NCBI GenBank assembly: GCA_012516125.1
Contig: JAAYXB010000010.1
Span: 15,984 to 79,983, forward strand
DNA length: 64,000 bases
Source: Bacillota bacterium
Lineage (GTDB): Bacteria > Bacillota > SHA-98 > UBA4971
Direction of reading: 5' to 3'
The notes under the pieces are model-generated. The model was not told the origin of the DNA, searched no databases, and saw only the letters and a list, made by a program, of their open reading frames with translations. The position numbers and the translations under genes were made by a program. Position 1 is the first letter of the stretch, and each line of letters begins with the position of its first letter. This document shows positions 26,395-64,000 of this stretch, piece by piece.

Positions 26395-26402
26395 TAGAAA
26401 AA

Positions 26403-44120: not shown

Positions 44121-44550
44121 TGACAGGATCGCGGCTATCTTGATGCTCCTGGTCGCACTTGTATTCGGTACGCAGATGGGTAACCTCACGAATTTCGGGA
44201 TCGTGTTTCCGAGGGCCGTCATCATCGTGCTTGCCGTCTCCTCGGCCGCGCTCCTCATGAAGAGCTGGGCAGGACGCGGAGGCGGGGAAGCGGTGGATGT
44301 CCGCGGTATGCAGACGGTTGCGGTCGCGGCCGCCCTGATGGTGGTTTGGGTGTTCCTCATCCCGTACCTAGGATTCTATGTGTCTTCGGTTCTTACATGC
44401 CTCTTCATGATGGCGCTCGTGGACGGTGCAGCGCGAAAACCAAGGACGCTCATAACATCGCTCGCAATAATCGCGCTAGAGGTGGCCGCCTTTTACATTG
44501 TCTTCGCAAAGCTCTTGGTCGTGCCGTTGCCTAAGGGGATCCTCTTCTGA
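44110..44550 (+). CDS. tctB: Tripartite tricarboxylate transporter small permease
   Basis: Four TM helices, FP motif, C-terminal LLVVPLPKG. Confidence 0.88.
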   Translation: MLNSDRIAAILMLLVALVFGTQMGNLTNFGIVFPRAVIIVLAVSSAALLMKSWAGRGGGEAVDVRGMQTVAVAAALMVVWVFLIPYLGFYVSSVLTCLFMMALVDGAARKPRTLITSLAIIALEVAAFYIVFAKLLVVPLPKGILF

Positions 44551-44605
44551 AGGGCGGCCAATAGGACGCAACCGCCTGCGTGCGCTATATGATTGGAGGG
44601 CTTGT

Positions 44606-47291: not shown

Positions 47292-48044
47292 TTAGCCCAG
47301 GCCGCCGCACGCGGGGCAGTTGGGGTCACGCGCGGCGCTTACCTCCCGCCACGTCGTCGCAAGCCCATCGAACAGGAGCAGCCGTCCGACCAGAGGCTGC
47401 CCCAGCCCAAGGATCACCTTAATGGCCTCGAGGGCCTCGATGCTGCCTACCACGCCCGGCACCGCGCCGATGATCCCGGCCTCCCTGCACGACGGCACCG
47501 CCCCGGGCGGCGGAAGGACGGGGAATATGCACCGGTAACACGGCCCTTTGCCGGGCACCACCGTGAGCACCATGCCATCGAACCTGAGCACCCCCGCCTC
47601 AATCAGGGGCTTGCCCGCCTTCACGCACGCGTCGTTCACGACATACCTGGTCTCAAGGTTGTCAACAGCGTCCACGACCACGTCATACGGCTCGACGAGC
47701 CCGGACACGTTCTCGGACGTGACCGTCATGCAGTGAGGCACCACGTGGACACTGGGGTTCAGGCGCGCAAGCGCCCGTTTCGCCGATTCCACCTTCGCGA
47801 GGCCCAGGTGGTTGACGCCGTGCAGAATCTGCCTCTGAAGGTTGGAGAGGTCCACGACATCGGAATCCACCAACCCGAGGGTGCCTACTCCGGCTGCGGC
47901 AAGATACATGGCCGCCGGGGACCCGAGGCCCCCGGCGCCCACCACCAGCACCTTCGCCACCCGCAGCTTTTCCTGCCCCGCCTCCCCTATCTCCGGAATC
48001 ACAAGCTGCCTGGAATATCGCATCCTCTCTTCATTGGTCAGCAT
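47292..48044 (-). CDS. moeB: MoeB/ThiF family adenylyltransferase
   Basis: RYSRQL, GAGGLGSP, SNLQRQ, DNLETR, PCYRC, C-terminal CPAC. Confidence 0.9.
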   Translation of the reverse strand: MLTNEERMRYSRQLVIPEIGEAGQEKLRVAKVLVVGAGGLGSPAAMYLAAAGVGTLGLVDSDVVDLSNLQRQILHGVNHLGLAKVESAKRALARLNPSVHVVPHCMTVTSENVSGLVEPYDVVVDAVDNLETRYVVNDACVKAGKPLIEAGVLRFDGMVLTVVPGKGPCYRCIFPVLPPPGAVPSCREAGIIGAVPGVVGSIEALEAIKVILGLGQPLVGRLLLFDGLATTWREVSAARDPNCPACGGLG

Positions 48045-48231
48045 CTCTGCATCACCAACCCCTCGCACCAGCCCTGTCGCAGCCTCACGACTGCAGCTTT
48101 GCTAGCGCAGCCTCGCCGCACCCTCGTTTCCGGTATGCCGCCCCACTCGCCGCTCTCCATCCGTTGCCCACGACAGCGGCACAGACCTGGGCTGGACTCA
48201 AGAAAACAGAGGTTAACCGCCCTGACGTGAG

Positions 48232-48372
48232 CCGGGCCGGACTGAGACAAGCCTAACCTGGTCAAGCCAAGCCAGGCCAGGCCAGACTGAGCTGGACTGA
48301 CTTCGGCACAGGAAGGCGGGGCAGGTTGAGGGCGAGCTAAACTAGCCAGGGCTAGAGCGAGCTAAGCTCGGT
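48232..48372. repeat. Low-complexity pentamer-periodic tract (GCCAG/ACTGA/GCTAA)
   Basis: GCCAAGCCAGGCCAGGCCAGACTGAGCTGGACTGA etc. Confidence 0.5.
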
Positions 48373-48418
48373 CGGGCTGCGCCACCAGTCTGCGTACCGC
48401 GCCGCCTGGCGTTGCCAG

Positions 48419-50044
48419 CTAAAGACAGCCCGATCGCTCCAGCACCCGCCGGAGCGCCCGCGTCGCCTCGCGTATCACTTCATTTTCGTCAAAGGCGAGG
48501 AGTTTCCTTCTATACATCAGGACGCGCCCGTCTACGATGGTCGTTTCCACATCAGACGCGGTCGCCTCGTACACCACGCGTGACACCACGTCCACACCCT
48601 CCGCGGGGACCGCGTGGGGTGCGTCAAGGTCAAGGATCACGATGTCCGCCCGCTTGCCCGGTTCGATGCTGCCGATCTCGTCCTCCAGGCCCATCGCTCG
48701 CGCCCCGCCGATCGTCGCCATCTCCAGCACCGTCGGAGCCGGCAGCGCAGTCGGCCCCAGACGCACCTTCTGGATGAGCGCGGCATGGCGCATTTCCTGG
48801 AACATGTCGAGGTTGTTGTTGCACGGCGCGCCGTCGGCACCCATGGACACGAACACGCCCATCTCGAGCATCTCCGGGACCTTCGCTATCCCCGAGGCCA
48901 GTTTGAGGTTGGACGACGGGCAGTGAACGACCTTCGTGCCGGAGTCGCGCAGGATCGCCATTTCCTCGTCGTCCAGCCATATGCAGTGGGCGAGGACGAG
49001 GTTCGGCCCGATGAGGCCCAGTTCGTGAAGGCATACGACGTTCCTCATACCCCTGTCCTGCTGCACGAGCTCAATCTCACCCCGGTTCTCAGAGGCGTGG
49101 GTGTGGACGAGCACCCCCGCCGCCCTCGCCATGTCGCGCACCCTCGCGAGGAGCCGGTCGGAGCACGATACCACAAACCTCGGCGCAAAGGCGTAGCGGA
49201 TCCTGCCGTCGTCGTGCATGTGCCACCGCTCGAGGAGGGCTTCACTTTCGCGGAGCGAGTCCTCAGTGGATTCCATGAGCGTCGCCGGCACGTCGGGTCC
49301 GTAGTCCATCATGACCTTCCCGGAGGCGGCGCGGATGCCTGACGAATCGATTGCCCAGAACGCGCTCTCGGTGTGGTGGACCGTCTCCATGTCGATGATG
49401 GACGTAGTCCCGCCGCGGATGAGCTCAGCTATCCCGAGCATCGCAGACCAATAAACACTCTCCTCGTCGTGGGCGCCCTCCAGCGGCCATATGCGCTTCT
49501 TCAGCCAGTCGAGGAGCTCGAGGTCGTCGGCCTGCCCCCGGAAAAGCGTTTGACAGAGGTGCACGTGTGCCTGGACGAACCCCGGCAGCACGACCTTGCC
49601 GGCGGCGTCTATGACCATGTCCACGTCATGCCTGTGGACGCCGACGGGAAGCTCGTGGACCTCCGCGCCCAACGCCGCGCCACAGCTGCCATTGTGGTCC
49701 ATGCCGGCCGAGTATGCGCCGATGTCTCCTTCCCCACCCGTACCCGAGTCCGCTCCTGTCCTGGCCCCCTCGGCTCCCGACAGGCTCGTGAGACTCGAGC
49801 AGCACCGCTCTCTTGACGACCTGAACCTTGAGCCTTCGTCCTCATCTCTTCGGCCGCCTGGTGAGGCCGGTCCTTTCCTGGTCCCTCCGAAGTCCTTTGA
49901 CCAGGGTCCCCGCGGCGATAGAGACCCAGGCCAGATCACCTGGGCTATCCTGCGCCCATCGATGAGGACATCGGCTCCCTCGAGCACCTCGCGCTTGCGG
50001 TTCATGGTCACAACGGTTCCCCCGCGGATGAGGATCTTCGCCAC
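48419..50044 (-). CDS. 5'-deoxyadenosine deaminase-like amidohydrolase with a long low-complexity insertion
   Basis: [48 protein letters not shown]. Confidence 0.88.
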
Positions 50045-51883
50045 CTACGCCACTCCTTTCGCTTCTATTCCGAGCTCCTCCAGCTTCTCACGGGTGGGGA
50101 CGCCGTCCTTTGTCCAGCCGCGCCCGGAGTAGTACTCCGGGAGCATCTTCGCAAGGTCCACCGTCACGCCCTTCGCAGGCCCCTCGGGGAGGCCCTCCTG
50201 CAGGAAGCGCCTGGGAAGGGTGTCATCGCGCGGCGTCATGCCGCACCGCAGGTTGAACATCCTTTCTATGTTGACGATTCTCTCGCCTGCGGCGAGGAGA
50301 TCCGCCTCAGAGTACTCTCGCCCGACTGCGAAGGTCAGCAGGTCGGCGACGTCTTGGGGCATGATGGCGTAGGTCGCAAACGTACAGTACTTGCATATCT
50401 CCGCCGAGTCGCACACCGCGCCGTAGTTCTCGTGCCATATGACCATGCCGACCTTGCCGCTCTCGGTGTATGGGTTCACGCAATCAGGGGTCCCGAACCA
50501 GCGGATCCCCTCCTCCCTTGTTTTGCTTAGAAGCTCGAAGTTGGGGAGAGCCCGGAGGTGGTCGCCGCCCCGGCTCGCCACGGCCTCGCCGAGGGCGAAG
50601 CCCTTGCCCGTGCGCACATCGAACGCCGGAAGCTCGAGCCCCTTCACGTGAAGGGCAAACCCCTCGCTCCCGGGGATCTCGGCGGACATGGCCCGCACGC
50701 CCCTCGCGAGGAACTCGCCGATACCATCACGGTGGGCGATCTTATGCAGGCAGTCGAGGACAAACTCGGCGTCCCCCCACTCGTACTTCTCGTCGATAAG
50801 GCCGCGCTGTGAGCACTCCATAAGGAAGGCGATGCTCGTGCCGGCGGATATCGTGTCAAGCCCGTAGTCATTGGCGAGCTGGTTGGCTTTGAGGATTGCC
50901 GCAAGCGACCCCACGCCCACCCTGCTCCCCAGCGTGACCATGGTTTCGTATTCGGGGCCCATGTTCTCGCACTCATACGGCGGGGAGGTCACGCGGGCAT
51001 AGTTCTTGCAGTGCAGGATGCACGAGAAGCACGCCTTCGAGGCGAGCTTGTAGGTCTCCTGGTAGATGTGGCTCGAGATCTTTTCGTAGTGCTCGAAGAG
51101 GCCGAGCTGCCCGTTCCTCGTGGAAAGCCCGCCGCTCGCCTGGGCGATGTCGACGAGGATGAGCGTGCCGTACTCGGAGAAGTCCTGGTAGGTAGGGTCT
51201 GCCATGAGCTTCCTATGGCACTCGCGGACCTTCGCAAGGAACCTCTCGTCGTCGGCCACCGGGATGTCACTGGATCCGCGCACGGCAATGGCCTTGAGGT
51301 TCTTGGACCCCATGACCGCGCCCACGCCGGTGCGCCCGGCCGCGTTGTGGCCCGCAGCCATGATGTTCGCATAGGGAACCAGGTTCTCGCCGGCCTGGCC
51401 TATGGCAATGATCTTAATGTCTTTCCCGTGCGCCTCTTCAAGGAGCTTGATAGTATCGAATACGCCGTGTCCCCAGAGGTGCGACGCGTCACGCAACTCC
51501 ACGTGATCGTCATCGATGAAGAGATAGGTTGGCCCCTTTGCCCTGCCCCGGATGATCACGGCGTCGTAGCCTGCAAACCGCAGCTCAGGGCCAAAATGCC
51601 CGCCGGAGTTGGCGTCCCCGAGAAGTCCGGTCAGCGGGGACTTGCATCCGACCGTGAACCTGCCCGACGAGGGCGAAAGGGTCCCGTCGAGCGGACCTGT
51701 TGCAACGGTCAGGACGTTGTCGGGCGAGAGGGGATCCGTGTCGGCGTCCACCAGATCGTAGAGGACCTTCGACGTAAACCCGCGGCCCCCGAGGTAGCAC
51801 GACTTCCACTCCTCCGGTATCCTGGTTTTGCGTGTGCGACCCCCGGTAAGGTCCACCCAGAGCAGCCTATCCATGTATGACAC
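50045..51883 (-). CDS. aor: Aldehyde:ferredoxin oxidoreductase (W/Mo-bis-pterin AOR family)
   Basis: LGGRG, AAGRTGVGAVMGSKNLKAI, EYET, GLDTIS, D..C.C. Confidence 0.93.
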   Translation of the reverse strand: MSYMDRLLWVDLTGGRTRKTRIPEEWKSCYLGGRGFTSKVLYDLVDADTDPLSPDNVLTVATGPLDGTLSPSSGRFTVGCKSPLTGLLGDANSGGHFGPELRFAGYDAVIIRGRAKGPTYLFIDDDHVELRDASHLWGHGVFDTIKLLEEAHGKDIKIIAIGQAGENLVPYANIMAAGHNAAGRTGVGAVMGSKNLKAIAVRGSSDIPVADDERFLAKVRECHRKLMADPTYQDFSEYGTLILVDIAQASGGLSTRNGQLGLFEHYEKISSHIYQETYKLASKACFSCILHCKNYARVTSPPYECENMGPEYETMVTLGSRVGVGSLAAILKANQLANDYGLDTISAGTSIAFLMECSQRGLIDEKYEWGDAEFVLDCLHKIAHRDGIGEFLARGVRAMSAEIPGSEGFALHVKGLELPAFDVRTGKGFALGEAVASRGGDHLRALPNFELLSKTREEGIRWFGTPDCVNPYTESGKVGMVIWHENYGAVCDSAEICKYCTFATYAIMPQDVADLLTFAVGREYSEADLLAAGERIVNIERMFNLRCGMTPRDDTLPRRFLQEGLPEGPAKGVTVDLAKMLPEYYSGRGWTKDGVPTREKLEELGIEAKGVA

Positions 51884-51889
51884 CCACCG

Positions 51890-52324
51890 TCACCTCGCCT
51901 TCAGGGCCAGGGCCCCGGTGGTGCAGAACTTCACGCACATGGGGTCACCATGGCAGAGATCGCAGATGAGAAGGGTCTCGTCGAATATGCGTATCCCGCC
52001 GGACGCACACGCCGCGATGCAGTCGCCGCAGAGGTTGCAGGCGGCGTCGTCCACGAGAATCTCCCCGTCGTCCCAGGCGAGCGCCCCCCTCTTGCACGCC
52101 GCAATGCACGGATGGTCCTCGCAGTGGTTGCACACGCGGATCTCCTCGCGACACCCCTGCCGGAGCACCTGTATTCGCGCCCGTCTCGGGTTGAATGCGC
52201 CGAAGTGGGCGATGGAACAGGCAAGCTCACAGTTCCGGCACCCGCTACACTTCTCCGGGTTGAACGTCCGGATATCCCAGTTATTCCCCCGCGTCAGCAC
52301 GTCCACACTGGCGCTGGTCGCCAT
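51890..52324 (-). CDS. 4Fe-4S dicluster ferredoxin-like subunit
   Basis: CSGCRNCELAC, CNHC..PC..AC, CNLCGDC..AC, CDLC..CVKFC. Confidence 0.92.
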   Translation of the reverse strand: MATSASVDVLTRGNNWDIRTFNPEKCSGCRNCELACSIAHFGAFNPRRARIQVLRQGCREEIRVCNHCEDHPCIAACKRGALAWDDGEILVDDAACNLCGDCIAACASGGIRIFDETLLICDLCHGDPMCVKFCTTGALALKAR

Positions 52325-52325
52325 G

Positions 52326-54419
52326 TCAGCGTGCACCCCCTTCCGCCTGGCCTGTCGCGCCGGCTGTCCTCGCGGTTTTCGCCGCCCCCGCCACCGAGCC
52401 CGACCCCAGGCTTGCGCCCGGTTCCGCGCCCGCCTGCGCTCGCGCTTGCCCCTGCGCCTGCGCCGGAGCTTTAGCCTGAGCCAAAGCCTGAGCTTGAGCT
52501 GGAGCTTGAGCTTGAGCTTGAGCCGCAAGGCGCGTGGGGTCGTGCAGGAGCTCTCTTGCCCGCGGCCCGCCAGGCTCGCCGAGGAAGCGCCTGTATAGCT
52601 CCGCGACGGCCGGGTTTCGGCGGGGATGCCTCTCCCGGAGGGCCTCGTCGATAGCGCGGAGCGCCGCCCCCCGCGCCCGGGCAGGCTCGCCCGGGGTGTC
52701 CCGGTCCATAGCAATGGGCTGCCCGCCCCCACCGACGCACCCGCCGGGGCAGGCCATGACTTCCACGAAGTCGTAAGGCCGCCTGCCCGCTGCGACCTCC
52801 TCGAGTATGCGCCTTGCCGCCGCAAGCCCCTGGACCACCGCCACACGCAGGGTCCAGGCACCGAGGGTCACCGTGGCCTCGGCCACGCCGGGGCCAGGCG
52901 CCGCGCTCGCAATGCGCTGCGCGCACCCGTCACCGCCTTGCGGCCCTGAACCGGCATCAGCGTCCCGGGCTCCCCCGGCCCCCTCCGCCTCGAGCTTGAC
53001 GCCCAGCTCGTCCGCAAGCGCGCGCAGCGCCGCATCCATGACGCCGCCTGTGGTCCCGAATATCGTCCCCGCCCCGCTTGCATCTCCGAGAGGCGCATCA
53101 AACTCACTATCCTCGAGCGACTCGAAGTCCATTTCCACCGACTGGATCAGCCGGATGAGCTCGCGCGTGGTGAGCACGGCGTCAACGTCGCGCAGCGCTC
53201 TTCGTCTGCTAGCGTCTCCTGCGTCTCCGCTCTCAGGGGTCCCCGCCATGTGCTGACGCGACCCGCCCTCCCTCATGGCCTCGAACTTTTTCGCCGTGCA
53301 CGGCATCATGGACACGACGTACACGTCCTCCGGAGCCACCCCCTCGGTCTCGTGAAGGACTGCCCTGGCAGCAGCCCCCGCCATCATGTGAGGCGACTTG
53401 CACGTGGAAAGGTGGGCAGTAAGGCCGGGGTACTCGTTCTCGACGAACCTCACCCACGCCGGGCAGCACGATGTGAACATCGGCAGCCTCCCGCCCGCCT
53501 CCAGGCGTTCCTTGAGCTCGTGCGCCTCTTCCACAGCCACAAGGTCCGCCCCGAACGCCGTATCGAACACCCTATCAAATCCCAGCTTTCGCAGGGCGGC
53601 CACCATCCTCCTCGTGGATACCGTCCCCGAGGGCATGCCCCACGCCTCGGCGAAAGTGGCCCTGAGCGCGGGCGCCGTTTGGGCCACCGTGACGAGCCCG
53701 CGATCCGCAAGCGAGCGCCTCACCCTGACGAGCTGGGACTTCTCCGAGAGCGCCCCCGTGGGGCACGCCGCCACGCACTGCCCGCACTCAACGCACTGTG
53801 TGTCGGTGACCCTGTCCTCGAAGGCAAGCGAGCGGCACCGGGCCCACTCGTCGCCAAGGGTCGCCTGTGCGCCCCCCCGCTCGACGACGCCTCTAGCCTC
53901 CTCGACCTCAGCGGTCAGGGCCGCATAGGGAATCATGTCGTGCATCCTGCTGCATGCTGCAACGCACCTTCCGCACATGACGCACTTGTTCGGGTCGCGG
54001 ACTATCGCGAGCCCCGTCCTGTCCACCGCCAGCTTCCATCGTTTCACCGGAAGCCTGCGCGAGCGCACCCCAAGCTCGTCGCCAAGCCTCTTTAGCTCAC
54101 AGTACGCTCTCCGCTCGCACACGAGGCACTCCCCCGGGTGCTGGGCAAAGAGGAACGACACGACCTCGCGACGCTTTGCCATTACCCTGTCGGTGGCGGT
54201 ATGAACGATCATGCCCGGCTCCACGGTGTGGTCGCACGCGGTCACCAGGTCCCCCCTGCCCTCCACCTCGACCACGCACACCCCGCACGCGGCGCTATGC
54301 TCGAGCCACGGATGGTGGCACAGGGTCGGCACCCGCACCCCAGCGCGCCTCGCGGCCTCCAGGATGGTCGTCCCCTCAGGCACCCGACACGCCTGACCGT
54401 CCACCAAGATCTCCGGCAT
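52326..54419 (-). CDS. hydA: Group A [FeFe]-hydrogenase catalytic subunit (CpI-like accessory clusters)
   Basis: TSCCPAW, MPCTAKKFE, EVMACPGGCVGGGGQP; N-terminal 2Fe-2S, His-ligated and 2x4Fe-4S motifs; AQ-repeat tail. Confidence 0.88.
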   Translation of the reverse strand: MPEILVDGQACRVPEGTTILEAARRAGVRVPTLCHHPWLEHSAACGVCVVEVEGRGDLVTACDHTVEPGMIVHTATDRVMAKRREVVSFLFAQHPGECLVCERRAYCELKRLGDELGVRSRRLPVKRWKLAVDRTGLAIVRDPNKCVMCGRCVAACSRMHDMIPYAALTAEVEEARGVVERGGAQATLGDEWARCRSLAFEDRVTDTQCVECGQCVAACPTGALSEKSQLVRVRRSLADRGLVTVAQTAPALRATFAEAWGMPSGTVSTRRMVAALRKLGFDRVFDTAFGADLVAVEEAHELKERLEAGGRLPMFTSCCPAWVRFVENEYPGLTAHLSTCKSPHMMAGAAARAVLHETEGVAPEDVYVVSMMPCTAKKFEAMREGGSRQHMAGTPESGDAGDASRRRALRDVDAVLTTRELIRLIQSVEMDFESLEDSEFDAPLGDASGAGTIFGTTGGVMDAALRALADELGVKLEAEGAGGARDADAGSGPQGGDGCAQRIASAAPGPGVAEATVTLGAWTLRVAVVQGLAAARRILEEVAAGRRPYDFVEVMACPGGCVGGGGQPIAMDRDTPGEPARARGAALRAIDEALRERHPRRNPAVAELYRRFLGEPGGPRARELLHDPTRLAAQAQAQAPAQAQALAQAKAPAQAQGQARAQAGAEPGASLGSGSVAGAAKTARTAGATGQAEGGAR

Positions 54420-54613: not shown

Positions 54614-54885
54614 AGCATAAAACCAGGAGGCTGCCTCAACTGGCCTGGGGCGCCGAGATCGAGCAAACGATCCCCGGACGCCCTCTCATAGCCAGGTTGG
54701 TTGCGGCCTCCTGGTAGAGACGCCTGAACCCACGATTATCAGGTCTATATGAGAGTGAGCCCTTAGCACCCTATGGTTCTTTTCTTATAAACATTCGGCG
54801 CAGCGTGCGACAATCCTTCCAACCGCGGTCACAGAGGCGGGTTCGCCGACCGTGAGCCATTGTCTCCGGGCAGCCACGCGCGCAC

Positions 54886-56277
54886 TTACCCGCGCGCGGC
54901 GCGGATCATGGCGTCAAGCTCGGGGATCATCGCCCGTTGCTTTACCCAGTATTCCTGCCTCTTCTGCGCGTTGAGCTCCTCAACGGTCTTGCCCTGCTGC
55001 TCAACCCAAGTGTAGTACTTGAGGTTATGCCACCGCTTCCGGTTCTCCACCGTCCCCTCAACGATGTGGTCGAGTTTGGCCGAAAGGAATATCGCCTCGT
55101 GGCGGCTCGCCGCCTTTACGCGGTCCATCTTGCCGTACGTGTCGGACAGGGCTTTCATCACCGACCTGTACCGGTCGATGGCGTCCGTGGCGACGGTGAC
55201 GATGTTGTCGTTAGGGCCGAACTCGTAGAACTTGGCGGTCTTGATCGCACCCAGGATGTTGCAGACGCCCGAGATCCCGATGATGCCGGACAGCGTCTCG
55301 ACCGCCGCCGCGTCGATCCCCACCTCGCCCGCGAGATACTCCATTCCGACAGGGTCGGTCAGGAGCTGGAGGCCCTTCTTACATTCCAGATCATCGATGC
55401 ACATCATGGCGTCCATGTTGTTGACATTGTGGATCCACGTAACGTGCTTGTCACCGATCCCCTGGATGTCGTGGGCACCGTACCCGTTGTACGAAAGCGT
55501 CGGGCACTGGACCGGCTCGAGGCCCACGATGCGCGTCTCATAAAACACCTCTTTGAGACGGTCCCCGGCAGCGATGGTCCCCGCGGAGCCCATCGCCGAG
55601 ACAAAGGCGGCCGTTCTCCCGTTTCCGATGCCTTTCTCCGCCAGCTCCCGCACGGCCTCGACTATGCTGTTGCCTGTCACATAGTAATGGAATCGGTAGT
55701 TCCCCATCTCCTCGAACTGGTTCAAGACGCGCACCCGCTCAGGGTCGGCCTTGACCAGTTCCTTGCACTTATCGTAGATCTCTTTGACGTTGCTCTCGCA
55801 TCCCGGGGTCGCGATGACCCGCGCCCCGTAGTACGCTATCTTCTCAAAGCGCTCCGCGCTCATCTGCTCCGGAAGGATGACCAGGGAGTCATATCCCATC
55901 CTCGGGCCGACCCAGGCCCCGCCGATTCCGTAGTTCCCTGTGGAGGGCCAGACCAGCGTGTGCTCGCCTGGGCGGATCTCGCCGCGAAGCTGCTTCTCGA
56001 TGGCCACGGAGTAGGTCGCGCCCACCTTGTGGCTGCCGGTGGGGAAATCCCTGCTGTACAGCAAAATGATGTTAGGCTCCACGCCCGTCAGCTCTCTCGG
56101 CACGAGGAAGTACCTTACTTTGTTGTCAAGCCCCTTCCACGTGATGTTGTACAGGTTGATGGGGTCGAGCACGTCCTCCTCAAGCGCCTTGACGGCTCTC
56201 TCCCTAACCGCCGGGTCTATGCGTTCAGGATGCAGCATCTCCTCGAATGTGGGGCCGTAGATCGGCTTACGCTTCAT
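54886..56277 (-). CDS. PLP-dependent enzyme (fold type II, cysteine/threonine synthase-like)
   Basis: GSHKVGA PLP lysine, STGNYGIG, GSAGT, HDIQGIG; ATG at 56277. Confidence 0.85.
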   Translation of the reverse strand: MKRKPIYGPTFEEMLHPERIDPAVRERAVKALEEDVLDPINLYNITWKGLDNKVRYFLVPRELTGVEPNIILLYSRDFPTGSHKVGATYSVAIEKQLRGEIRPGEHTLVWPSTGNYGIGGAWVGPRMGYDSLVILPEQMSAERFEKIAYYGARVIATPGCESNVKEIYDKCKELVKADPERVRVLNQFEEMGNYRFHYYVTGNSIVEAVRELAEKGIGNGRTAAFVSAMGSAGTIAAGDRLKEVFYETRIVGLEPVQCPTLSYNGYGAHDIQGIGDKHVTWIHNVNNMDAMMCIDDLECKKGLQLLTDPVGMEYLAGEVGIDAAAVETLSGIIGISGVCNILGAIKTAKFYEFGPNDNIVTVATDAIDRYRSVMKALSDTYGKMDRVKAASRHEAIFLSAKLDHIVEGTVENRKRWHNLKYYTWVEQQGKTVEELNAQKRQEYWVKQRAMIPELDAMIRAARG

Positions 56278-56314
56278 AAGTCTCTCACCTTTCTTTGCGA
56301 CGGTACAGGCAGCG

Positions 56315-56440
56315 CGAAGTGAGGGTGCGTTAGTTCTTGTCCCTTTTCCAGTAGTTGCCGGGTTGGCGGTGTTGCACTCTCTCTTTGCGTCGCCAGCAAC
56401 CCCTCCCAAAATACGGGAGCACCTTTGCACCCTCACTTAG
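56315..56440 (-). mobile_element. MITE, short form (126 bp); its end supplies the ssnA stop codon
   Basis: Minus strand TTC-TAA-GTGAGGGTGC...GCACCCTCACTTCG. Confidence 0.85.
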
Positions 56441-57765
56441 AACCTCTCCCACACCCGCCTCGCAAGCTCGCGCGAGCGGGCCGTGATCCTCTCTTCGTCG
56501 AGCCCCGTAAGCCTGCGGCCACGCATGAGCACACGCCCGGCCACCACCGTCGTATCTACCAGGCCGCCGCTCATCCCGAACAGGACGTGGCCGTAGTAGT
56601 TGGACGGGTCCACCGGCGTCGGCGGGCGGTAGTCCACGACTATGACGTCCCCTGCAGCCCCTGGCTCGAGCACGCCCAGCTTGCGCCCGAAAATGCGGCG
56701 GGCGATCTCCCTGTTGTTCTCGAATATCATGGCCGGCACCTCGGCCCACGCCGCGCTCGGGTTCCTCTCGGCAAGCTTGTGGAGCATGTTTGCGACCTTC
56801 ACCGACTCGAACATGTCGGCGGTGTAGCCGTCGGTCCCGAGGCCGACCCTCACGCCCTTGCTAATCATCCGCAGGACAGGCGCCACACCCACGGCGTTCC
56901 CCATGTTGGACTCGGGATTGTGCACCACGTTGACGTCGCGCTCGCGCAAGATGTCCATCTCGGCCTCGTTCACGTGAACGCAGTGAGCGGCGATGGTCTT
57001 TGGTCCGAGGATCCCGAAAGCATCGAGCCGCTCAACAACCCGCTTTCCCGACTTCGCCAGCGCGTCCTCCACGTCCTCCGGCCCCTCGGCCACATGGATG
57101 TGGAACCCCGCGTCGAGCCCCTCGGCGGCCTCGCGGCACTTCGCGAGCGTGGCGTCGGATAGCGTGATCTGGGCGTGAAGCCCGAACGACGCGGCGAGGC
57201 GATCGCCCCTCTCGCGCCTGCACCTTTCGATGAACCTCACGTTCTCGCGGATGCCCTGGTCCGCGATAGCCTCGCCATCCCTGTCGGAGACCTCGTACGC
57301 CAGGCACGCCCTGATGCCAGCTTCACCCACCGCGCGCGCTATCTCGTCGAGGCTGCCCGGAACCGCCATGGGGCTCGCGTGATGGTCTAGGATGGTCGTG
57401 GTCCCGCAACGGATGCAGTCGATGAGCGGAACGAGCGCGCTCACGTACACGTCCTCCGGCCCGAGGGCCTTATCCAGCCTCCACCACAGACGTTCCAGGA
57501 TCTGCACGAACGTTCGTGGCGGCGGGTCCTTGAGCGCCATGCCCCGCGCGAACGTGCTATAGAGATGCATATGGGTGTTTATCATGCCGGGCATGATGAC
57601 GCGGCCCCCGGCATCGATGAACTCGGCGTCCGGATGGCGCCCTCTCACCTCGTCTGCGGCCCCCACCTCGCGGATGACGCCGTCCGCAATGGCGACGGCG
57701 CCGTCGTCCAGGACCCGCGCTTCGGCGTCAAGGGTGATGAGGCGGCCTCCCCCGATGATGAGCAT
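56437..57765 (-). CDS. ssnA: SsnA-type amidohydrolase
   Basis: HMHLYSTFARG, GTTTILDHHASP, FHIHVAEG, HNPESNMGNAVG, LGTDG. Confidence 0.9.
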   Translation of the reverse strand: MLIIGGGRLITLDAEARVLDDGAVAIADGVIREVGAADEVRGRHPDAEFIDAGGRVIMPGMINTHMHLYSTFARGMALKDPPPRTFVQILERLWWRLDKALGPEDVYVSALVPLIDCIRCGTTTILDHHASPMAVPGSLDEIARAVGEAGIRACLAYEVSDRDGEAIADQGIRENVRFIERCRRERGDRLAASFGLHAQITLSDATLAKCREAAEGLDAGFHIHVAEGPEDVEDALAKSGKRVVERLDAFGILGPKTIAAHCVHVNEAEMDILRERDVNVVHNPESNMGNAVGVAPVLRMISKGVRVGLGTDGYTADMFESVKVANMLHKLAERNPSAAWAEVPAMIFENNREIARRIFGRKLGVLEPGAAGDVIVVDYRPPTPVDPSNYYGHVLFGMSGGLVDTTVVAGRVLMRGRRLTGLDEERITARSRELARRVWERF

Positions 57766-57790
57766 TGCACTCTGCCCCCTTCCAGTGCCT

Positions 57791-58384
57791 TCAATCCGCT
57801 GAATTCCTCGAGTGAATCTCTCGACGGGACGCCTCCGACACAACAGGTGCCCCGGGCGGTTCGGATGTTCCAGCTCCGGACGCCACCGGACCCCATGCCT
57901 TCATCGTCCTCGCCGCATCCTCGATGGCGGATATGATCTGATGATATCCCGTGCACCTGCAAAGGTTCCCGGAGATGGCGCGGGTGATGTCCTCCCTCGT
58001 GGGATTGGGATTCTCGCGGAGAAGCGCCGCGGCCGACATAAGCATGCCCGGTGTGCAAAACCCGCACTGCACCGCGGTGTGCTCGATGAACGCCTCTTGG
58101 AGCGGGTGAAGCCGGCCGTCTTTCGCGAGGCCCTCCACAGTCTCCACCTCCCGCCCCTCCACCTGAAGCGCCGGGACGAGGCAGGAGTTCACGGGCTTTC
58201 CGTCGAGGAGCACGGTGCATGCGCCGCACTCGCCGATGCCACACCCTTCCTTCGTGCCGGTGAGCCTGAGGCCCTCCCGCAGCACGTCTATGAGCCTATC
58301 CTCAGCCGAAACGTCAACCTCGACCGCCCCTCCGTTCACCTTGAACGATATCGTCGTCCTGGCCCCTGGCCCGACTTCTCTCAC
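57791..58384 (-). CDS. Mo-hydroxylase 2Fe-2S subunit (XdhC/CoxS-like)
   Basis: GTKEGCGIGECGACTV, QCGFCTPG, GNLCRCTGY. Confidence 0.95.
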   Translation of the reverse strand: MREVGPGARTTISFKVNGGAVEVDVSAEDRLIDVLREGLRLTGTKEGCGIGECGACTVLLDGKPVNSCLVPALQVEGREVETVEGLAKDGRLHPLQEAFIEHTAVQCGFCTPGMLMSAAALLRENPNPTREDITRAISGNLCRCTGYHQIISAIEDAARTMKAWGPVASGAGTSEPPGAPVVSEASRREIHSRNSAD

Positions 58385-59268
58385 TCCACGTTCACCCCCA
58401 GAGCCCTCCAGATGGCGCGCCTCGCAATGGCCTCCAGAGCAGGCTTCTTGTAGTCCGTGGACCAGCGCACGCCCGTCCTTCTCACCATCTCCTCCGCCAC
58501 TTCGCGCGCCGCCGCATCGACAGTGGCCTCGTCAGGAACCTTGCCCGCAAGGATCTCCTCGGCTGAGGACACCTGCGCAGGCATGGGCAGGCACGCCCCT
58601 GGGGCGATCGCCGCCCGCACCACGCGGCCGGCGCCATCGCGCTCGATAACCACAGCGCAGCTCAACCGCGCGATGGCGAGCGCCTCCCGCCTCCCCAGCT
58701 TTACAAAAGCGGACCGGCACGTCGGAGGAAGCGCGTCGAAATAGACCCCCACGAGGACCTCCCCTGGCTGCGCGGAGTTCCTGTATGGCCCCTCGAATAT
58801 GTCGGTGATGAGGATGTCCCGCGTGCCGCCGAGGTCGGAAAGCCGCACCCTCGCCGAAAGAGCTACGAGCGCCGGGATGGTGTCCGCGGCTGGCGAGGCG
58901 TTCATGATGTTCCCGCCGATGGTGCCCCGCGCGCGGATTTGCGGTGAACCCACGCTCGCGCATGCCTCCGCGAGAAGCGGCGCGCCCTTCCTGATGATGG
59001 GGTTCCGCGCGATCTCCTCGTGGGTCGTGAGCGCCCCAATCCTGATGGTGCCACTCGCGCTGGACACGCCCGCAAGCCCCGGGATCCGCGAGATGTCCAC
59101 AAGCCACCGCAGGCCATCCGCCCCGCCGCGCTCGGGGCGCCGTCTCAGTTGCACCAGGACGTCTGTGCCCCCGGCGATGACCCTGGCGTGCTCGGCGTGC
59201 TCCCGCAGGAACTCGCTAGCCTCCCTCAAGGTCTCCGGCACCACGTACCCGAGTTTTCGAGGGCTCAT
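58381..59268 (-). CDS. Mo-hydroxylase FAD subunit (XdhB/CoxM-like)
   Basis: IAGGTDV, IGAL.T, QIRARGTIGGN..NASPAAD. Confidence 0.93.
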   Translation of the reverse strand: MSPRKLGYVVPETLREASEFLREHAEHARVIAGGTDVLVQLRRRPERGGADGLRWLVDISRIPGLAGVSSASGTIRIGALTTHEEIARNPIIRKGAPLLAEACASVGSPQIRARGTIGGNIMNASPAADTIPALVALSARVRLSDLGGTRDILITDIFEGPYRNSAQPGEVLVGVYFDALPPTCRSAFVKLGRREALAIARLSCAVVIERDGAGRVVRAAIAPGACLPMPAQVSSAEEILAGKVPDEATVDAAAREVAEEMVRRTGVRWSTDYKKPALEAIARRAIWRALGVNVE

Positions 59269-61634
59269 GCCTGCTCACTTCCTCTCTTGCCGCGCGCGGC
59301 CTTGAGTGACCGCCCGAGCAGCACTTTCTCGAGATCCAGCGGAAGCTCGCGGATCCTCCTGCCAGTCGCGTGGCACACGGCGTTCGCGATGGCCGGCGCG
59401 AGAAGCTCGCACGTGGGCTCGCCGATGGTCTTGGCGCCGTATGGGCCGTAAGGATCAGGGTTCTCGACCACGATCGGAATCACTTCGGGAACGTCCATGG
59501 ACGTGGCAATCAGGTACTCGTCGAAGTTCCGGGTCCTTGTGACGCCCCTCGCCATCTCGACCTCCTCCAGGAGGCCGTACCCCATTCCCATGGCCACGCC
59601 GCCGTATATCTGCCCCTCCACCGTCGCGGGGTTTATGGCTCGACCCACGTCGTGCGCGGCAGCCACCTTCAGTACCCTGACCTTGCCCGTCTCGGTGTCC
59701 ACTTCTACCTCGGCCGCCTGGCACCCGTACACATACGTAAAGTAGGCCCTCCCCTGGCCGTGCTCCTCATCCCACCAAACCTTCGGACCTTTGTACCATC
59801 CGAAGGCGGCCATAAGCTCGCCACGGTTGTACGCGGCCCGCGCAACCTCGCCGAAGCTCAAGCTTCGCCCCGGGTCGCCGTCTACGAATATCCTGCCGCC
59901 TGATGCCTTGAGCGCCTCGCAAGACGTCCCGAGCATCTCCCCGGCCACCGCCAGGAGCGTCTCGCGGACCTTCCGGGCGGCGTCACGCACGGCGTTCCCG
60001 CCCATGGTGGTGCTGCGCGACGCCACCGTCGGGCCACCGTCGGGGATGAGCGAGGTATCGGTGTCCATGAACACGACGTCTTCGAGGTTGCACCCGAGTT
60101 CCTCCGCGGCTATCTGGCTGAAGATCGTGCGCAGACCCTGGCCGTTCTCGGCAAGGCCGGCATAGACGTAAACGCTGCCGTCCTGCTGCACCGAGACGAT
60201 GGCGCCGGTGGCGTCGACTCCCTCCCCGCCCAGGCTGACGCCGCGATAGCTTGCGGCGAGCCCGACACCGCGGACCTTCTTCGTCCCTGCCCGCCGCGCC
60301 GCTTCAGAATAGGCTTTTCTTTTCTCCCGGTACCCGATGGCGTCCGCCGCCTTCTGCATGACCTCCACGAGGCTCACCGCGTGGTCGTCCAGTGCCTGCC
60401 CGGTGGCGGTAACCGACCCCGGCCGAAAGCCGTTCTTCAGGCGAAGGTCCAGCGGGTCCATGCCCAGCTCCGCGGCAAGCTCGTCCATCAGGGACTCATG
60501 AGCGAAGATGATCTGCGGGCTTCCGAACCCCCTCATGGCGCCCGCGTAAGTGTTGTTCGTGTATACCCCGTATACGTCGGTCTTCACGTTGGGCACCTCG
60601 TAGGGCCCCGTAGCCTGCACCACCGAGCGCCATGTCACAAACGGCGTCATCGAGGCGTAGGCCCCGCCATCGGCGAGGATGCGTATCTCCATGGCCTGGA
60701 GCTTGCCGTCTCTTGTCGCGCCAACCTTATACTTGAGCACGTAGGGATGCCGCTTGTAACCCTCGACGATGGACTCCTCGCGGGTGTTCACCATCTTCAC
60801 CGGCCGCCCCGTCTTCAGGGCCGCCAGCGCCACCCGCGCGCACATGCAGGACATGATGTCGTCCTTGCCCCCGAAGGACCCGCCCATTGCGCACTGGATG
60901 ACGCGGACCTTGTTCAGGCTGACCCCGAGGACCTCCGCCACCACGCGCCTCGCGGTAAACGGGTTCTGAATGGACCCGTAAACCGTGACGGACCCCTCGC
61001 CGGGGTTCGGCACCGCCACCGCAGCCTCGGGCTCGATGTAGGCGTGCTCGATGAACTGAGTGCGGTACTCGCGCTCGGTCACCACGTCGGACGCAGCAAA
61101 GCCCGCGTCCACGTCGCCCTTTCGGACCTTGTGATGGTTCACGATGTTGCCGGGCGCATGGTCGTGCAGGACCGGCGCGCCCTCCGCGAGGGCTTCCTCG
61201 GGCGAGAACACGGCCGGAAGCTCGTCGTATTCAACCCGCACAAGCTCAAGAGCCTTGTCGGCTGCCTCAAGCGAAGTCGCCACGATCATTGCCACACCGT
61301 CGCCCAGATAACGCGTCTTGTCGAAAGCGAGCACAGGCATGTCCCGCTTCACCGGCCCGAAGGTCCTCGCGCCGGGGATGTCTTCGTGAGTGATGACTGC
61401 GACCACCCCGGGGACCTTCCGGGCTTCGCTTGCGTCGATGCGGATGATCCTCGCGTGCGGGAACCTCGCCCGCAGCATGCGTGCATGGAGCATCCCATCG
61501 AAGTACAGGTCCGCCCCGAACTTCGCCCTGCCCGTCACCTTCTCGACCGCGTCCACCCGCTTCGCCCGGTGGCGCACTATGCTGAACTCATCCTGCGGGC
61601 CGTCCTTCGCAGCCTTATCTCTCGCAGTCTCCAC
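59265..61634 (-). CDS. Xanthine dehydrogenase family molybdopterin-binding subunit
   Basis: HAYIEPE, GGSFGGK, AMRGFGSPQ, ENGQG, TVASR, AKTIGEP. Confidence 0.93.
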   Translation of the reverse strand: METARDKAAKDGPQDEFSIVRHRAKRVDAVEKVTGRAKFGADLYFDGMLHARMLRARFPHARIIRIDASEARKVPGVVAVITHEDIPGARTFGPVKRDMPVLAFDKTRYLGDGVAMIVATSLEAADKALELVRVEYDELPAVFSPEEALAEGAPVLHDHAPGNIVNHHKVRKGDVDAGFAASDVVTEREYRTQFIEHAYIEPEAAVAVPNPGEGSVTVYGSIQNPFTARRVVAEVLGVSLNKVRVIQCAMGGSFGGKDDIMSCMCARVALAALKTGRPVKMVNTREESIVEGYKRHPYVLKYKVGATRDGKLQAMEIRILADGGAYASMTPFVTWRSVVQATGPYEVPNVKTDVYGVYTNNTYAGAMRGFGSPQIIFAHESLMDELAAELGMDPLDLRLKNGFRPGSVTATGQALDDHAVSLVEVMQKAADAIGYREKRKAYSEAARRAGTKKVRGVGLAASYRGVSLGGEGVDATGAIVSVQQDGSVYVYAGLAENGQGLRTIFSQIAAEELGCNLEDVVFMDTDTSLIPDGGPTVASRSTTMGGNAVRDAARKVRETLLAVAGEMLGTSCEALKASGGRIFVDGDPGRSLSFGEVARAAYNRGELMAAFGWYKGPKVWWDEEHGQGRAYFTYVYGCQAAEVEVDTETGKVRVLKVAAAHDVGRAINPATVEGQIYGGVAMGMGYGLLEEVEMARGVTRTRNFDEYLIATSMDVPEVIPIVVENPDPYGPYGAKTIGEPTCELLAPAIANAVCHATGRRIRELPLDLEKVLLGRSLKAARGKRGSEQA

Positions 61635-61688
61635 CTGCCTTAAGCCTCCTTCCCCGCTCCCTCCGCGCCCCTAATCACTTACGACCCT

Positions 61689-64000
61689 TTACGCACCCGC
61701 GGGCTCCCCCGCCTGCTTCCTGAGGGCCATGTACACCCTCTCCGCCGTGGCCGGGATGTGCGTTATCCAGATCCCGGTCGCATCGTGGATGGCATTGGTG
61801 ATGGCAGGAGTGATGGGCACGCACACCGCCTCGCCGATCCCCTTGGCGCCGAAGGGCCCCGATGGCTCGAGCTCTTCCACGATTATGGTTTCTATCTCGG
61901 GCGCGTCCACGGAGGTCGGGATTATGTATGTGGAGAAGTTCGGCGTCTTCGTGATCCCCTGTTCGATGACGGTGTCCTCCATCAGGGCATATCCCATCCC
62001 CATGACCACGCCGCCCTCCGACTGCGCCTCGATTCCCACGGGGTTTATGGCTTTGCCAGGGTCAGGAATGGACACAGCCCGGAGAACCTCCACCTCGCCG
62101 GTGAGGGTGTTCACCTCCACGAGGGCGACCTGAGTGATGTAGGAGTATATCAGGTGCGGCAGGCCGAAATACCCTTCAACGCCCCTGTCGGCCACGGGCC
62201 AGATGAAGTCGCCCTCGGTTTTCAGCCTCCTGCCCTTGCTCTCGGCGATGCATGCGATCTCGCGGAACGAAAGCCGCCCGGCCGAACGTGTGGGCTCGCC
62301 CGCCGGACAGGACCGCGCCTCCACGCTCCCACGCCCGAAAGCGATCTCCTCGCGCGGCGCGCCGAGCGCCTCTGCGGCCACGTCGGCAATGGCCTCGCGC
62401 ATCCTCGCCGCCGCGCACCGGATGGCGTTTCCGCCGGTGTACACCGAGCGCGACGCCGTGGACGTGCCGGAGTCCAGCGTGTACCTGGAGTCCCCCGATA
62501 CCATCACGATATCCTCAACAGAGCAGCCAAGGCTGTCCGCGGCCATCTGCGCGAACGCCGTGGTGTTGCCCTGGCCGATCTCGGGACAGCTCACTCCCAC
62601 GGCAAACCGTCCATCCGGGAGAAGCTCGATGGTGGCCGCCCCGTAGTCCGGTAGCCCCACGCCGAGCCCGCACCCGTGAAGCTCTGTTGCGATCCCGACG
62701 CCCCGTTTCTTGTGGGGCGCTGAAGGCCTCGCCTTCAGCTCCTCCCGCCGCACCCATATCTCGCATTTTGACGCCGCGTCAAGCGTGGCCACGGCCCCCA
62801 CGGAGGCCGTCATCGTGTGGCCGAGGGCCGCCACATCTCCCTGCCGGAGGGCGTTCTTGCGGCGGAACTCGAGCCTGTCCATGCCAAGGCGCTCGGCGAT
62901 CATGTCTATCTGCGTCTCCAGCGCGAATATCACCTGGTTCGCGCCGAAGCCACGGAACGCCCCGGCCAGGCCGTTATTCGTGTACACGCAGAACCCCTCG
63001 AGCTTCACGTTGGGCATGCGATAGGCTCCGCACGAATGCTCGATGGCAAGGTTCACGACAGGTCCCCCGAGGGACGCGTACGCCCCTGTGTCAGCGACCA
63101 CGCGCACCTCGTTGGCGAGAAGCGTGCCGTCGGCCGCCGCCGCGGTCTTCATGCGGATCTTCATCGGATGGCGCTTCATCCCAGCGACCGCCGATTCCTC
63201 CCGCGAAAGCACGATCTTTACTGGGCGGCCGGTGCGAAGCGCGAGGAGCGCGAGGTATATCTGGACGGTTATCTCATCCTTGCCTCCGAAGGCGCCGCCG
63301 GTAGGTGTGGATACGACTTGGATCTTCCTGGGGTTCATGCCGAGGGCACGCGCTATCTGAAGCTGATCCCTGAACGGATGCTGGCTTCCGCACCAGACGG
63401 TTATGTTGCCATCCTCGTCCATCGTGGCGACGCCGCTTTCCGTCTCCATGAAGGCGTGCATTTGCCTGGGAGTGTAATAGGTGTTCTCGACCACGACCGC
63501 AGCCTCTCGGAAGGCCGCGTCCACGTCGCCGCGCTCCACCTTGATGTGATGGTGGATGTTCCCGTCGGCGTGCACCTTCGGCGACGACTCCAGCATCGCC
63601 TCCTCGGGGTCGTCCACCACCGGAAGAGGCTCGTACTCAACCTCGATCGCCCGCAGAGCCTCGCTCGCCTTCTCCTTGGAGGTCGCCGCCACCAGCGCGA
63701 CCGCATCGCCCATATATCGTACCTTATCGAAGCAGAGGACGGGCTGGTCGGGAACGACGATGCCGAAGCCGTTGAGGCCGGGCACATCCTTGTGGGTCAG
63801 CACGGCAACCACGCCGTCTATGGCCTCGGCCTTCGAGGTGTCTATCTTCTTGATCAGGGCATGCGGATGCGCGCTCCGTAGGACCGCGCCCCAGAGCATG
63901 CCCGGAAACGAAAGGTCAGACATGAACTTGAGCCTGCCGGTGACCTTGTCCGCCGCATCGATGCGGGAAACCCGGGCACCTACCCATCTGGGCTCATCCA
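61689..64000 (-). CDS. Second xanthine dehydrogenase family Mo-binding subunit (PucD-like), 5' end beyond the window
   Basis: DKVTG.LKF, HAFMETE, GGAFGGK, AFRGFG, EIGQG, GAKGIGE; frame open to the edge. Confidence 0.92.
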   Translation of the reverse strand, partial: DEPRWVGARVSRIDAADKVTGRLKFMSDLSFPGMLWGAVLRSAHPHALIKKIDTSKAEAIDGVVAVLTHKDVPGLNGFGIVVPDQPVLCFDKVRYMGDAVALVAATSKEKASEALRAIEVEYEPLPVVDDPEEAMLESSPKVHADGNIHHHIKVERGDVDAAFREAAVVVENTYYTPRQMHAFMETESGVATMDEDGNITVWCGSQHPFRDQLQIARALGMNPRKIQVVSTPTGGAFGGKDEITVQIYLALLALRTGRPVKIVLSREESAVAGMKRHPMKIRMKTAAAADGTLLANEVRVVADTGAYASLGGPVVNLAIEHSCGAYRMPNVKLEGFCVYTNNGLAGAFRGFGANQVIFALETQIDMIAERLGMDRLEFRRKNALRQGDVAALGHTMTASVGAVATLDAASKCEIWVRREELKARPSAPHKKRGVGIATELHGCGLGVGLPDYGAATIELLPDGRFAVGVSCPEIGQGNTTAFAQMAADSLGCSVEDIVMVSGDSRYTLDSGTSTASRSVYTGGNAIRCAAARMREAIADVAAEALGAPREEIAFGRGSVEARSCPAGEPTRSAGRLSFREIACIAESKGRRLKTEGDFIWPVADRGVEGYFGLPHLIYSYITQVALVEVNTLTGEVEVLRAVSIPDPGKAINPVGIEAQSEGGVVMGMGYALMEDTVIEQGITKTPNFSTYIIPTSVDAPEIETIIVEELEPSGPFGAKGIGEAVCVPITPAITNAIHDATGIWITHIPATAERVYMALRKQAGEPAGA

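Follow-up and report, generated by a model that had tools for sequence, protein, structure and literature searches.

Several recently discovered enzyme complexes, among them HDCR, AorABC and WorABCSL, are built of modules, with a "wire" that connects a pterin enzyme to a hydrogenase or to a bifurcating core. Subunits of the WorS, AorA and HycB type have been shown to wire tungsten, molybdenum or hydrogenase modules, and WorS, AorA and HycB3/4 oligomerise or form filaments through a C-terminal helix (PMC12318220; bioRxiv 2023.01.23.525143). In WorABCSL of Acetomicrobium mobile (Wor-Bfu; 9MQX), WorS wires WorL to the HydA-like subunit WorA (PMC12318220), and AorABC of Aromatoleum aromaticum (8C0Z) also couples to H2, which is activated at the tungsten site (PMC6365974; bioRxiv 2023.01.23.525143; PMC9295118). 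Here we describe a locus of an uncultured digester bacterium of the Bacillota, located in a stretch of 64,000 nt (the window; G+C content about 63%) on contig C79 of a 3.24-Mb, 98%-complete metagenome-assembled genome (MAG; GCA_012516125.1). On the minus strand of the window, a purine riboswitch is followed by genes for an [FeFe]-hydrogenase (hydA), a polyferredoxin, a tungsten-type aldehyde:ferredoxin oxidoreductase (AOR; gene aor) and a deaminase that we read as acting on purine bases. These five elements would form a single transcription unit, with moeB just downstream, and we regard this layered reading, taken as a whole, as evenly balanced between right and wrong.

The locus resembles HDCR (HydA2-HycB3/HycB4-FdhF; 7QV7) in that the genes for an [FeFe]-hydrogenase and a pterin (Mo/W) enzyme stand together with one for a four-cluster polyferredoxin of the HycB fold family. 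Unlike in HDCR, the pterin enzyme belongs to the AOR family (AFOR_N/AFOR_C) and the operon contains no FdhF-type formate dehydrogenase; the single polyferredoxin gene is short and has no C-terminal extension or filament helix, HydA is of the long M3 type as opposed to the short HydA2, and the operon stands under a purine riboswitch. Among solved structures, WorL and WorS of WorABCSL rank first or close to first as relatives of the AOR and the Fe-S protein of the window, but here the HydA-like partner is predicted from its intact motifs to carry a real H-cluster, it has no Zn-finger/helix plug, and the WorS-like protein has no C-terminal helix. Also in contrast to WorABCSL, no BfuB (NuoF-like) gene is adjacent, a point on which an earlier note on this DNA, made without database searches (the sequence-only reading), was right: PF01512 (NuoF/HydB) had no match on the whole contig C79, in a search that did not separately cover HydC (NuoE-like) proteins. 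AorABC likewise combines a polyferredoxin (AorA), a tungsten subunit (AorB) and a third redox subunit, with maturation genes in the operon, but its third subunit is the FAD/NAD protein AorC, in whose place the window has an [FeFe]-hydrogenase; no gene for an AorC-type FAD subunit lies between hydA and moeB, and the AorA filament helix is absent from the polyferredoxin.

Two further systems bear comparison. FdhF with AegA/YgfT (UacF) of E. coli (bioRxiv 2025.05.19.654654; 2025.04.24.650524) similarly pairs a low-potential donor enzyme with a HycB-like polyferredoxin domain and is associated with the XdhD/YgfK/SsnA/HyuA/YgeY pathway, whose genes also flank the operon described here; in the window, by contrast, the donor would be H2 or an aldehyde instead of formate, the polyferredoxin is free-standing, and the link to the pathway is predicted from the genes. 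Bifurcating HydABC (group A3) differs in that hydA of the window has no HydB nearby. Judged by gene content, the locus is outside HDCR (no formate dehydrogenase), WorABCSL (no BfuBC, no plug), AorABC (no AorC) and HydABC (no HydB), and it shares the WorS/AorA/HycB-type wire logic. No description of a hydA-AOR operon, nor of an AOR or a hydrogenase in the purine pathway, was found in the searchable literature.

The hydrogenase, polyferredoxin and AOR genes

HydA (52326..54419, minus strand) contains the Pfam domains Fer2_4, NADH-G_4Fe-4S_3, two Fer4, Fe_hyd_lg_C (2e-89) and Fe_hyd_SSU, and passed the TIGR02512 "group A" model (418 bits, cut-off 406). Its H-cluster motifs P1 to P3 are canonical (FTSCCPAW, MPCTAKKFE and EVMACPGGCVGGGGQP), and its order of a 2Fe-2S domain, a His-type (NuoG-type) 4Fe-4S domain, two 4Fe-4S domains, the H-domain and an SSU-like domain is the M3 architecture. 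The protein remained below the cut-offs of the A6 model (NF040763; 624 vs 765 bits) and of the clostridial ferredoxin hydrogenase model (NF040762; 480 vs 900 bits). The closest solved structures are HydA1 of bifurcating HydABC (8a6t, 430 bits) and CpI (about 388 bits), and HydA2 of HDCR was matched at 1e-86. HydA also contains low-complexity insertions and ends in an Ala/Gln-rich, Cys-free tail. This tail (52329-52530, minus strand) is a repeat (AQAQAQAPAQAQ...) of about 65 aa that is poorly kept among orthologues, and the final codons, E-G-G-A-R, are conserved, the probable reason being that they double as the Shine-Dalgarno sequence for the gene that follows. HydE, HydG and HydF are all encoded in the genome, by genes that lie together on contig C8 and each score above the curated cut-off.

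The genome as a whole contains about nine Fe_hyd_lg_C matches and seven AORs, as well as six PF01512 genes, located elsewhere, of which three adjoin paralogous HydAs. In the genome's own paralogous HydAs (on C13, C30 and C32; L014-L016) and in many related genomes, P1 reads TSCSPGW, not TSCCP, which puts a Ser at the position of the proton-relay Cys; the AOR-linked HydA clade described below keeps CC. Two of the three TSCSPGW HydAs of this genome (C30, C32) adjoin HydB.

The Fe-S protein of 144 aa (51890..52324, minus strand) had been described from the letters as a "dicluster" protein, a term that has to be corrected: it contains four Cys motifs with 16 Cys, predicting four [4Fe-4S] clusters, and is a tetra-[4Fe-4S] polyferredoxin of the WorS/AorA type. 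All 16 Cys align with those of WorS from WorABCSL (9mqx_E, 5e-25), which was the best match, followed by the small subunit of WOR5 (6e-22), AorA (8c0z_C, 3e-19) and HycB3/HycB4 (about 1e-12); BamC and HycB of formate hydrogenlyase were matched as well. The NCBIfam models group the protein with the N-terminal polyferredoxin domains of PadI, YgfT and AegA (YgfT/AegA, 1e-15). It terminates 5 residues past the last aligned motif, where WorS has 23 more, and so is without the C-terminal oligomerisation helix of WorS, AorA and HycB3/4.

The third gene (50045..51883, minus strand) encodes the AOR, equivalent to WorL/AorB, with matches to AFOR_N (1e-79) and AFOR_C (3e-126) and to the structures of Pyrococcus furiosus AOR (1aor, 500 bits), WorL (9mqx_D, 477 bits) and AorB (8c0z_A, 392 bits). 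Alignment to 1aor indicates that the CxxCxxxC motif with Cys494, the residues Glu313 and His448, and both DxxGLD pterin motifs are retained. Tungsten is assigned to the cofactor from family membership, the sequence itself being compatible with either W or Mo. The locus thus has the two-subunit core that defines WorSL and AorAB, an AOR-family large subunit with an adjacent four-cluster small subunit, the gap being 6 nt.

The genes follow one another closely. Between the stop codon of hydA and the start codon of the Fe-S gene there is 1 nt (TGA-C-ATG), 6 nt separate the Fe-S gene from aor (TGA+6 nt+GTG), and the stop codon of aor abuts the start of the deaminase gene (TAG-GTG, 0 nt); Shine-Dalgarno-like sequences of the operon genes are located within the preceding genes. 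The sequence-only reading had placed hydA with all three H-cluster motifs on this strand, with an Fe-S gene 1 nt behind it, then the AOR and 5'-deoxyadenosine-deaminase-like genes in tight series and moeB further downstream, and xdh/ssnA genes upstream on the same strand, and this layout was found throughout. Its proposal that the AOR and the [FeFe]-hydrogenase would be wired through the Fe-S subunit fits the 1/6/0-nt spacing, the conserved gene order and the match of the Fe-S protein to WorS, AorA and HycB3/4.

The purine riboswitch, the deaminase and the purine pathway genes

A purine riboswitch aptamer (RF00167; 44.4 bits, gathering threshold 37) lies on the minus strand at 54772..54669, within the 466-nt gap between the upstream gene for a pyridoxal phosphate (PLP) enzyme and hydA, 114 nt past the former and 250 nt before the latter; the sequence-only reading had overlooked it. 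It is the sole RF00167 match in the 3.24-Mb genome. Each of the nine orthologous loci has the same element ahead of hydA (43-49 bits), making ten of ten with the window, and across these loci the aptamer core is almost invariant and the changes in P1 are G·U-compatible. The three-way junction contains U22, U47, U51 and C74 and has no insertion in J2-3. By these positions the aptamer is of the guanine/hypoxanthine (C74) type, with ligand binding predicted. A xanthine-II or 8-oxoguanine variant was rejected, because U51 is retained (no U51C) and J2-3 is free of the insertion (criteria of PMC9295807).

The expression platform (54617..54635, minus strand) was recognised in the ligand-free minimum-energy fold. 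It consists of an anti-P3 element, GCCUCCUGG at 54631..54623, which is complementary to the P3 5' strand at 54714..54706 and is followed by UUUUAU; when the ligand-free RNA was folded without constraint, P3 and the 3' half of P1 of the aptamer paired with the anti-P3 region in one long hairpin. The anti-P3 element is kept in all ten orthologues. The arrangement is that of pbuE-type RF00167 riboswitches, which have a three-way-junction aptamer with U22/U47/U51 and a terminator stem made of the aptamer 3' half, a downstream complement and a U-run; it differs from pbuE in having C74 in place of U74 and in controlling a hydrogenase/AOR operon. Strong riboswitches (75-80 bits) of the same pbuE-like platform design, with clear U-runs, head xdh-deaminase-ssnA operons in two other genera of the phylum (L234:2416-2518 and L226:17358-17459). 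Because these xdh-operon riboswitches use the same design, we favour, with reasonable confidence, an ON switch through which purine would induce the operon.

The deaminase gene at the end of the series (48419..50044, minus strand) encodes an amidohydrolase of the NF005557/MtaD-guanine deaminase group. It passes the "5'-deoxyadenosine deaminase" (DadD) equivalog NF005557 (682 bits, cut-off 522), but its homologues with 59-63% identity adjoin ssnA/xdh in five other genera, and on this ground we regard the gene as a purine-cluster gene and read its product as a probable purine-base deaminase of the catabolic cluster. In the window's copy, an in-frame low-complexity insertion of about 95 aa (residues ~37-135; 49640-49945, minus strand) occupies what is normally a short loop between the N-terminal strands and the HxH motif. 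The insertion varies in length among orthologues, and the tblastn alignments of G004 and G001 begin only at residue ~120.

Upstream of the riboswitch, on the same strand (54886..63998), are the genes for the PLP enzyme (PALP family), SsnA (637 bits against TIGR03314), the 2Fe-2S and FAD subunits of xdh and two xdh Mo subunits. Beyond the window the strand continues with an XdhB-type FAD subunit, a PreA-like and a GltD-like protein, which together resemble parts of YgfK, an XdhC-type maturation factor, YgeY and a D-hydantoinase. By the families they belong to, these upstream genes are the set of the reductive uric acid/2,8-dioxopurine pathway, which was described in bioRxiv 10.1101/2025.05.19.654654 (PMC12507026) and bioRxiv 10.1101/2025.04.24.650524. 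According to these papers, neither NADH nor NADPH serves the clostridial uric acid 6-dehydroxylase, for which no physiological donor is known, and Enterococcus and E. coli require formate for the pathway; neither a hydrogenase nor an AOR is mentioned. In the published stoichiometry, electrons are left over from hypoxanthine, xanthine comes out about even, and additional reductant is required for uric acid. The purine riboswitch, the genome's only one, makes the earlier suggestion that the module could dispose of electrons from purine hydroxylation more plausible.

Purine clusters that contain an AOR were also seen outside the phylum. Peptide patterns retrieved 16 distant AOR loci, and two of these belong to clusters of the 2,8-dioxopurine type: an Anaerolineaceae MAG has ygeW-hyuA-aorA-aor-ssnA-preA in one tight operon (L080:6796-14723), and a Spirochaetales MAG has an MCH-like cyclohydrolase gene, aor, a helix-turn-helix-cupin regulator gene, ygeY, ssnA, preA, xdh and ygeW (L091:8448-21159). 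These two AORs are 37-44% identical to that of the window, and neither locus has hydA or a riboswitch. Within the window's own phylum, none of the ssnA loci of 54 other genera had an AOR or a HydA within about 9 kb. The idea that AOR is a general member of purine clusters was thus rejected for this phylum; with two cases in other phyla and none among the 54 genera, the link recurs but is sporadic.

Distribution of the trio and flanking features

HydA orthologues of 69-94% identity were found in nine genomes, eight congeneric ones and one from a sister genus, and the next-best matches dropped to 44-49%. All related genomes are MAGs, and kin genomes are not independent observations. The order hydA-FeS-aor-deaminase is present in all nine, followed by moeB wherever the contig continues, and the AORs of these loci (87-97% identity) are better conserved than the HydAs. 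In six of these genomes the operon directly follows the xdh/ssnA/PLP genes.

AOR relatives of 56-70% identity were also found, and the neighbourhood was examined for one of them, in genome G179 of another family (f90). G179 has the same trio order, with HydA 41-45%, the Fe-S protein 57% and AOR 70% identical, and by open reading frame (ORF) coordinates about 4 nt are shared by its hydA and Fe-S frames. No riboswitch was found with this trio, on a hydA contig that is 10.9 kb long and ends inside aor, and no HydA orthologue was found in 40 relatives of G179. The hydA-aor association, first noticed in a single stretch of DNA, thus recurs in every genome with a HydA orthologue and, as a trio, in a second family. 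The strand of the G179 trio carries, ahead of it (L094:4169-10843), genes for a trans-4-hydroxy-L-proline dehydratase (HypD, a glycyl radical enzyme; 1378 bits) and its activase, lysA, a gene of 335 aa coding for an unknown protein, and a GNAT gene; we give this context little weight. The HypD product, pyrroline-5-carboxylate, equilibrates with glutamate semialdehyde, an aldehyde. On the ssnA contig of G179 (L243:18302-19022), a T-box leader and group II intron domains adjoin the purine cluster.

In a tree of 35 HydAs, the proteins of the window, its orthologues and G179 form a clade whose 11 members all adjoin FeS-AOR; the G179 HydA is sister to the window's clade (SH-aLRT 98), and the 24 other HydAs all fall outside. 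The loci of these 24 reach about 1.5 kb past the match and were not screened for AOR, except those of G019 and G020, which have wider flanks and no AOR. Both the G179 branch and that of the window's clade are long, so that long-branch attraction is possible. A loop expansion after P2 is common to ten of the 11 clade HydAs; it is absent from the orthologue in G007, and as a shared derived character it counts as weak only. The peptide STCKSPHMM occurs in all 11 AOR-linked HydAs and in none of the 24 others aligned, but a metagenome scan with it returned 80 loci (L095-L174), all with other HydA types (35-44% identity) and none beside an AOR, and its use as a clade marker was rejected. Many of these metagenomic HydAs are directly preceded by a GltD-like gene, an A2-like, glutamate-synthase-linked arrangement.

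Downstream of the deaminase gene, after a spacer of 350 nt, lies moeB (47292..48068, minus strand), a MoaD/ThiS adenylyltransferase gene (NF004281, 303 bits vs 266) that is likely a pterin-cofactor maturation gene. The spacer contains a weak terminator-like hairpin found by a consensus scan only (48207..48224, minus strand), and its part at 48230-48400 (minus strand) is made of imperfect short repeats (…cagtccagctcagtctggcctggcctggcttggcttgacc…). On the 3' side of moeB there is an ORF of 119 aa without family match (orf119) and then an EamA transporter gene. An unrelated cluster on the plus strand (37319-45688) contains genes for a sigma-54 activator, a malate racemase of the LarA-family nickel-pincer type (524 bits) and a tartrate dehydrogenase, together with three genes that have no NCBIfam match and whose sizes are compatible with a Tct-type transporter. 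Six tRNA genes are clustered at 23318-26589 (minus strand). The proposal that the substrate could be nucleoside sugar-derived aldehydes fell away, as the deaminase is a purine-cluster gene and no deo or dihydroxyacetone phosphate (DHAP)-shunt genes lie nearby; acetaldehyde from such genes was rejected too, the nearby plus-strand genes being those of tartrate/malate metabolism and the deaminase being purine-linked.

Proposed function and alternative explanations

By analogy with HDCR, WorABCSL and AorABC, the trio may be a purine-induced module that acts as a redox valve, with the polyferredoxin connecting the H-cluster and the tungsten site (aldehyde/acid ⇌ H2), a proposal to which we assign an even chance. 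In this module the 144-aa polyferredoxin would dock on AOR as WorS docks on WorL and AorA on AorB, and its four [4Fe-4S] clusters would form an electron path, usable in either direction, from AOR's tungstopterin/[4Fe-4S] site to HydA's accessory clusters and H-cluster. HydA would stand where AorABC has AorC, or where WorABCSL has WorABC. The trio would thereby be a reversible aldehyde/acid:H+/H2 oxidoreductase for which soluble ferredoxin would not be needed. Purine bases would turn the operon ON through the riboswitch terminator built from the aptamer 3' half, and the module could serve as a redox valve for the adjacent reductive purine fermentation: with reduced purines, surplus electrons would be vented as H2, and when reductant is short, H2 or aldehydes would be drawn on. 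Oxidation of an aldehyde to H2 is exergonic, the acetaldehyde/acetate couple having a potential of about -580 mV compared with -414 mV for H+/H2. The complex, its substrate and the direction of flux are inferred by homology with WorSL, AorAB and HDCR.

A number of observations weigh against this proposal. With its CpI-like M3 architecture HydA could do no more than exchange electrons with soluble ferredoxin, it has neither the Zn-finger nor the helix "plug" of WorA, and the polyferredoxin is without the C-terminal assembly helix of WorS, AorA and HycB. The 2,8-dioxopurine pathway has no known aldehyde-forming step, and the 54 ssnA loci of the phylum lack both AOR and HydA. For three related genomes of the nine, no purine cluster was found in the fetched flank, ssnA being about 12.6 kb upstream in G001 and on other contigs in G003 and G009, and the trio is rare: across the 401 phylum genomes sampled, an AOR of more than 50% identity occurs only in the window's genus and in G179. 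As for the riboswitch, the U-tract is kept in only six of the ten orthologues and absent from four, and in folds computed under the constraint that the aptamer forms, the anti-P3 element base-pairs with the Shine-Dalgarno sequence of hydA, so that the switch would be OFF; because of this second pairing, the polarity given above is inferred only.

Part of this evidence would also suit co-expression without a dedicated complex, in which an ordinary two-subunit AOR of the WorSL/WOR5 type and a monomeric, ferredoxin-dependent CpI-like HydA share nothing but a promoter and the ferredoxin pool. The full M3 architecture of HydA, as in a ferredoxin-dependent CpI, and a polyferredoxin without assembly helix are what such a reading would lead one to see, AorA-like genes stand beside AOR in many taxa without hydA, and with seven AORs and about nine HydA-like genes in the genome some hydA-AOR adjacency is unsurprising. 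It does less well with the gene order and its 1-nt or overlapping junctions, which are found in two families despite HydAs that are only 41-45% identical, and with the AOR-linked HydAs being a fast-evolving clade of their own in which each member found adjoins FeS-AOR; we consider it possible, though doubtful. The insertion of hydA-FeS-aor as a passenger between a riboswitch and the salvage or catabolic deaminase that it serves, with no purine function of the trio, is in our judgement very unlikely. It would account for the trio existing elsewhere without a riboswitch and for the same riboswitch type heading operons of homologous deaminases in two other genera, but the arrangement persists in two genera whose HydAs are as little as 69% identical, and the motifs are intact in every copy, which argues for selection on a co-regulated unit.

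The purine context also allows for a different flow of electrons. The trio may be the missing low-potential electron system of the 2,8-dioxopurine pathway, an H2-dependent (perhaps aldehyde-dependent) purine reductase system analogous to HDCR that feeds the uric acid 6-dehydroxylase and/or the 2,8-dioxopurine reductase. HydA and the polyferredoxin, with AOR as an optional second entry, would pass electrons from H2 to the 2,8-dioxopurine dehydrogenase and/or a YgfK-type reductase, in the role that FdhF and the polyferredoxin-GltD fusions AegA/YgfT may be taken to have in formate-dependent uric acid degradation by E. coli; in the extreme form, AOR itself would reduce the lactam carbon of the oxopurine. 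The riboswitch and the adjacency to the pathway cluster favour this, as do the match of the polyferredoxin to the N-terminal domains of YgfT/AegA, the separate GltD-like and PreA-like genes in the cluster, the published gap at the clostridial donor together with the formate requirement of Enterococcus and E. coli, and the AORs next to hyuA and ssnA in Anaerolineaceae and next to ygeY-ssnA-preA-xdh in Spirochaetales. However, the AOR of the window retains the canonical aldehyde-oxidising residues and is no closer to those two purine-linked AORs than to P. furiosus AOR, the ssnA loci of the phylum speak against it as they do against the aldehyde/H2 module, and the G179 trio has no riboswitch and its ssnA lies on a different contig, although the hydA contig there is only 10.9 kb. 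Taken together, these points make this form of electron delivery unlikely.

If the aldehyde/H2 module is real, the [FeFe]-hydrogenase-polyferredoxin-tungsten AOR unit would be a new combination, capable of direct aldehyde-to-H2 or H2-to-acid chemistry, which would be of biocatalytic interest for acid reduction, and its operon would be an unusual gene association for a guanine-type riboswitch. Its general importance is limited, as the module is rare and confined to uncultured Bacillota. For these organisms, a single purine riboswitch would tie hydrogen metabolism to anaerobic purine degradation, and the module is a testable candidate for the unknown electron donor or acceptor of the pathway in clostridial-type organisms.

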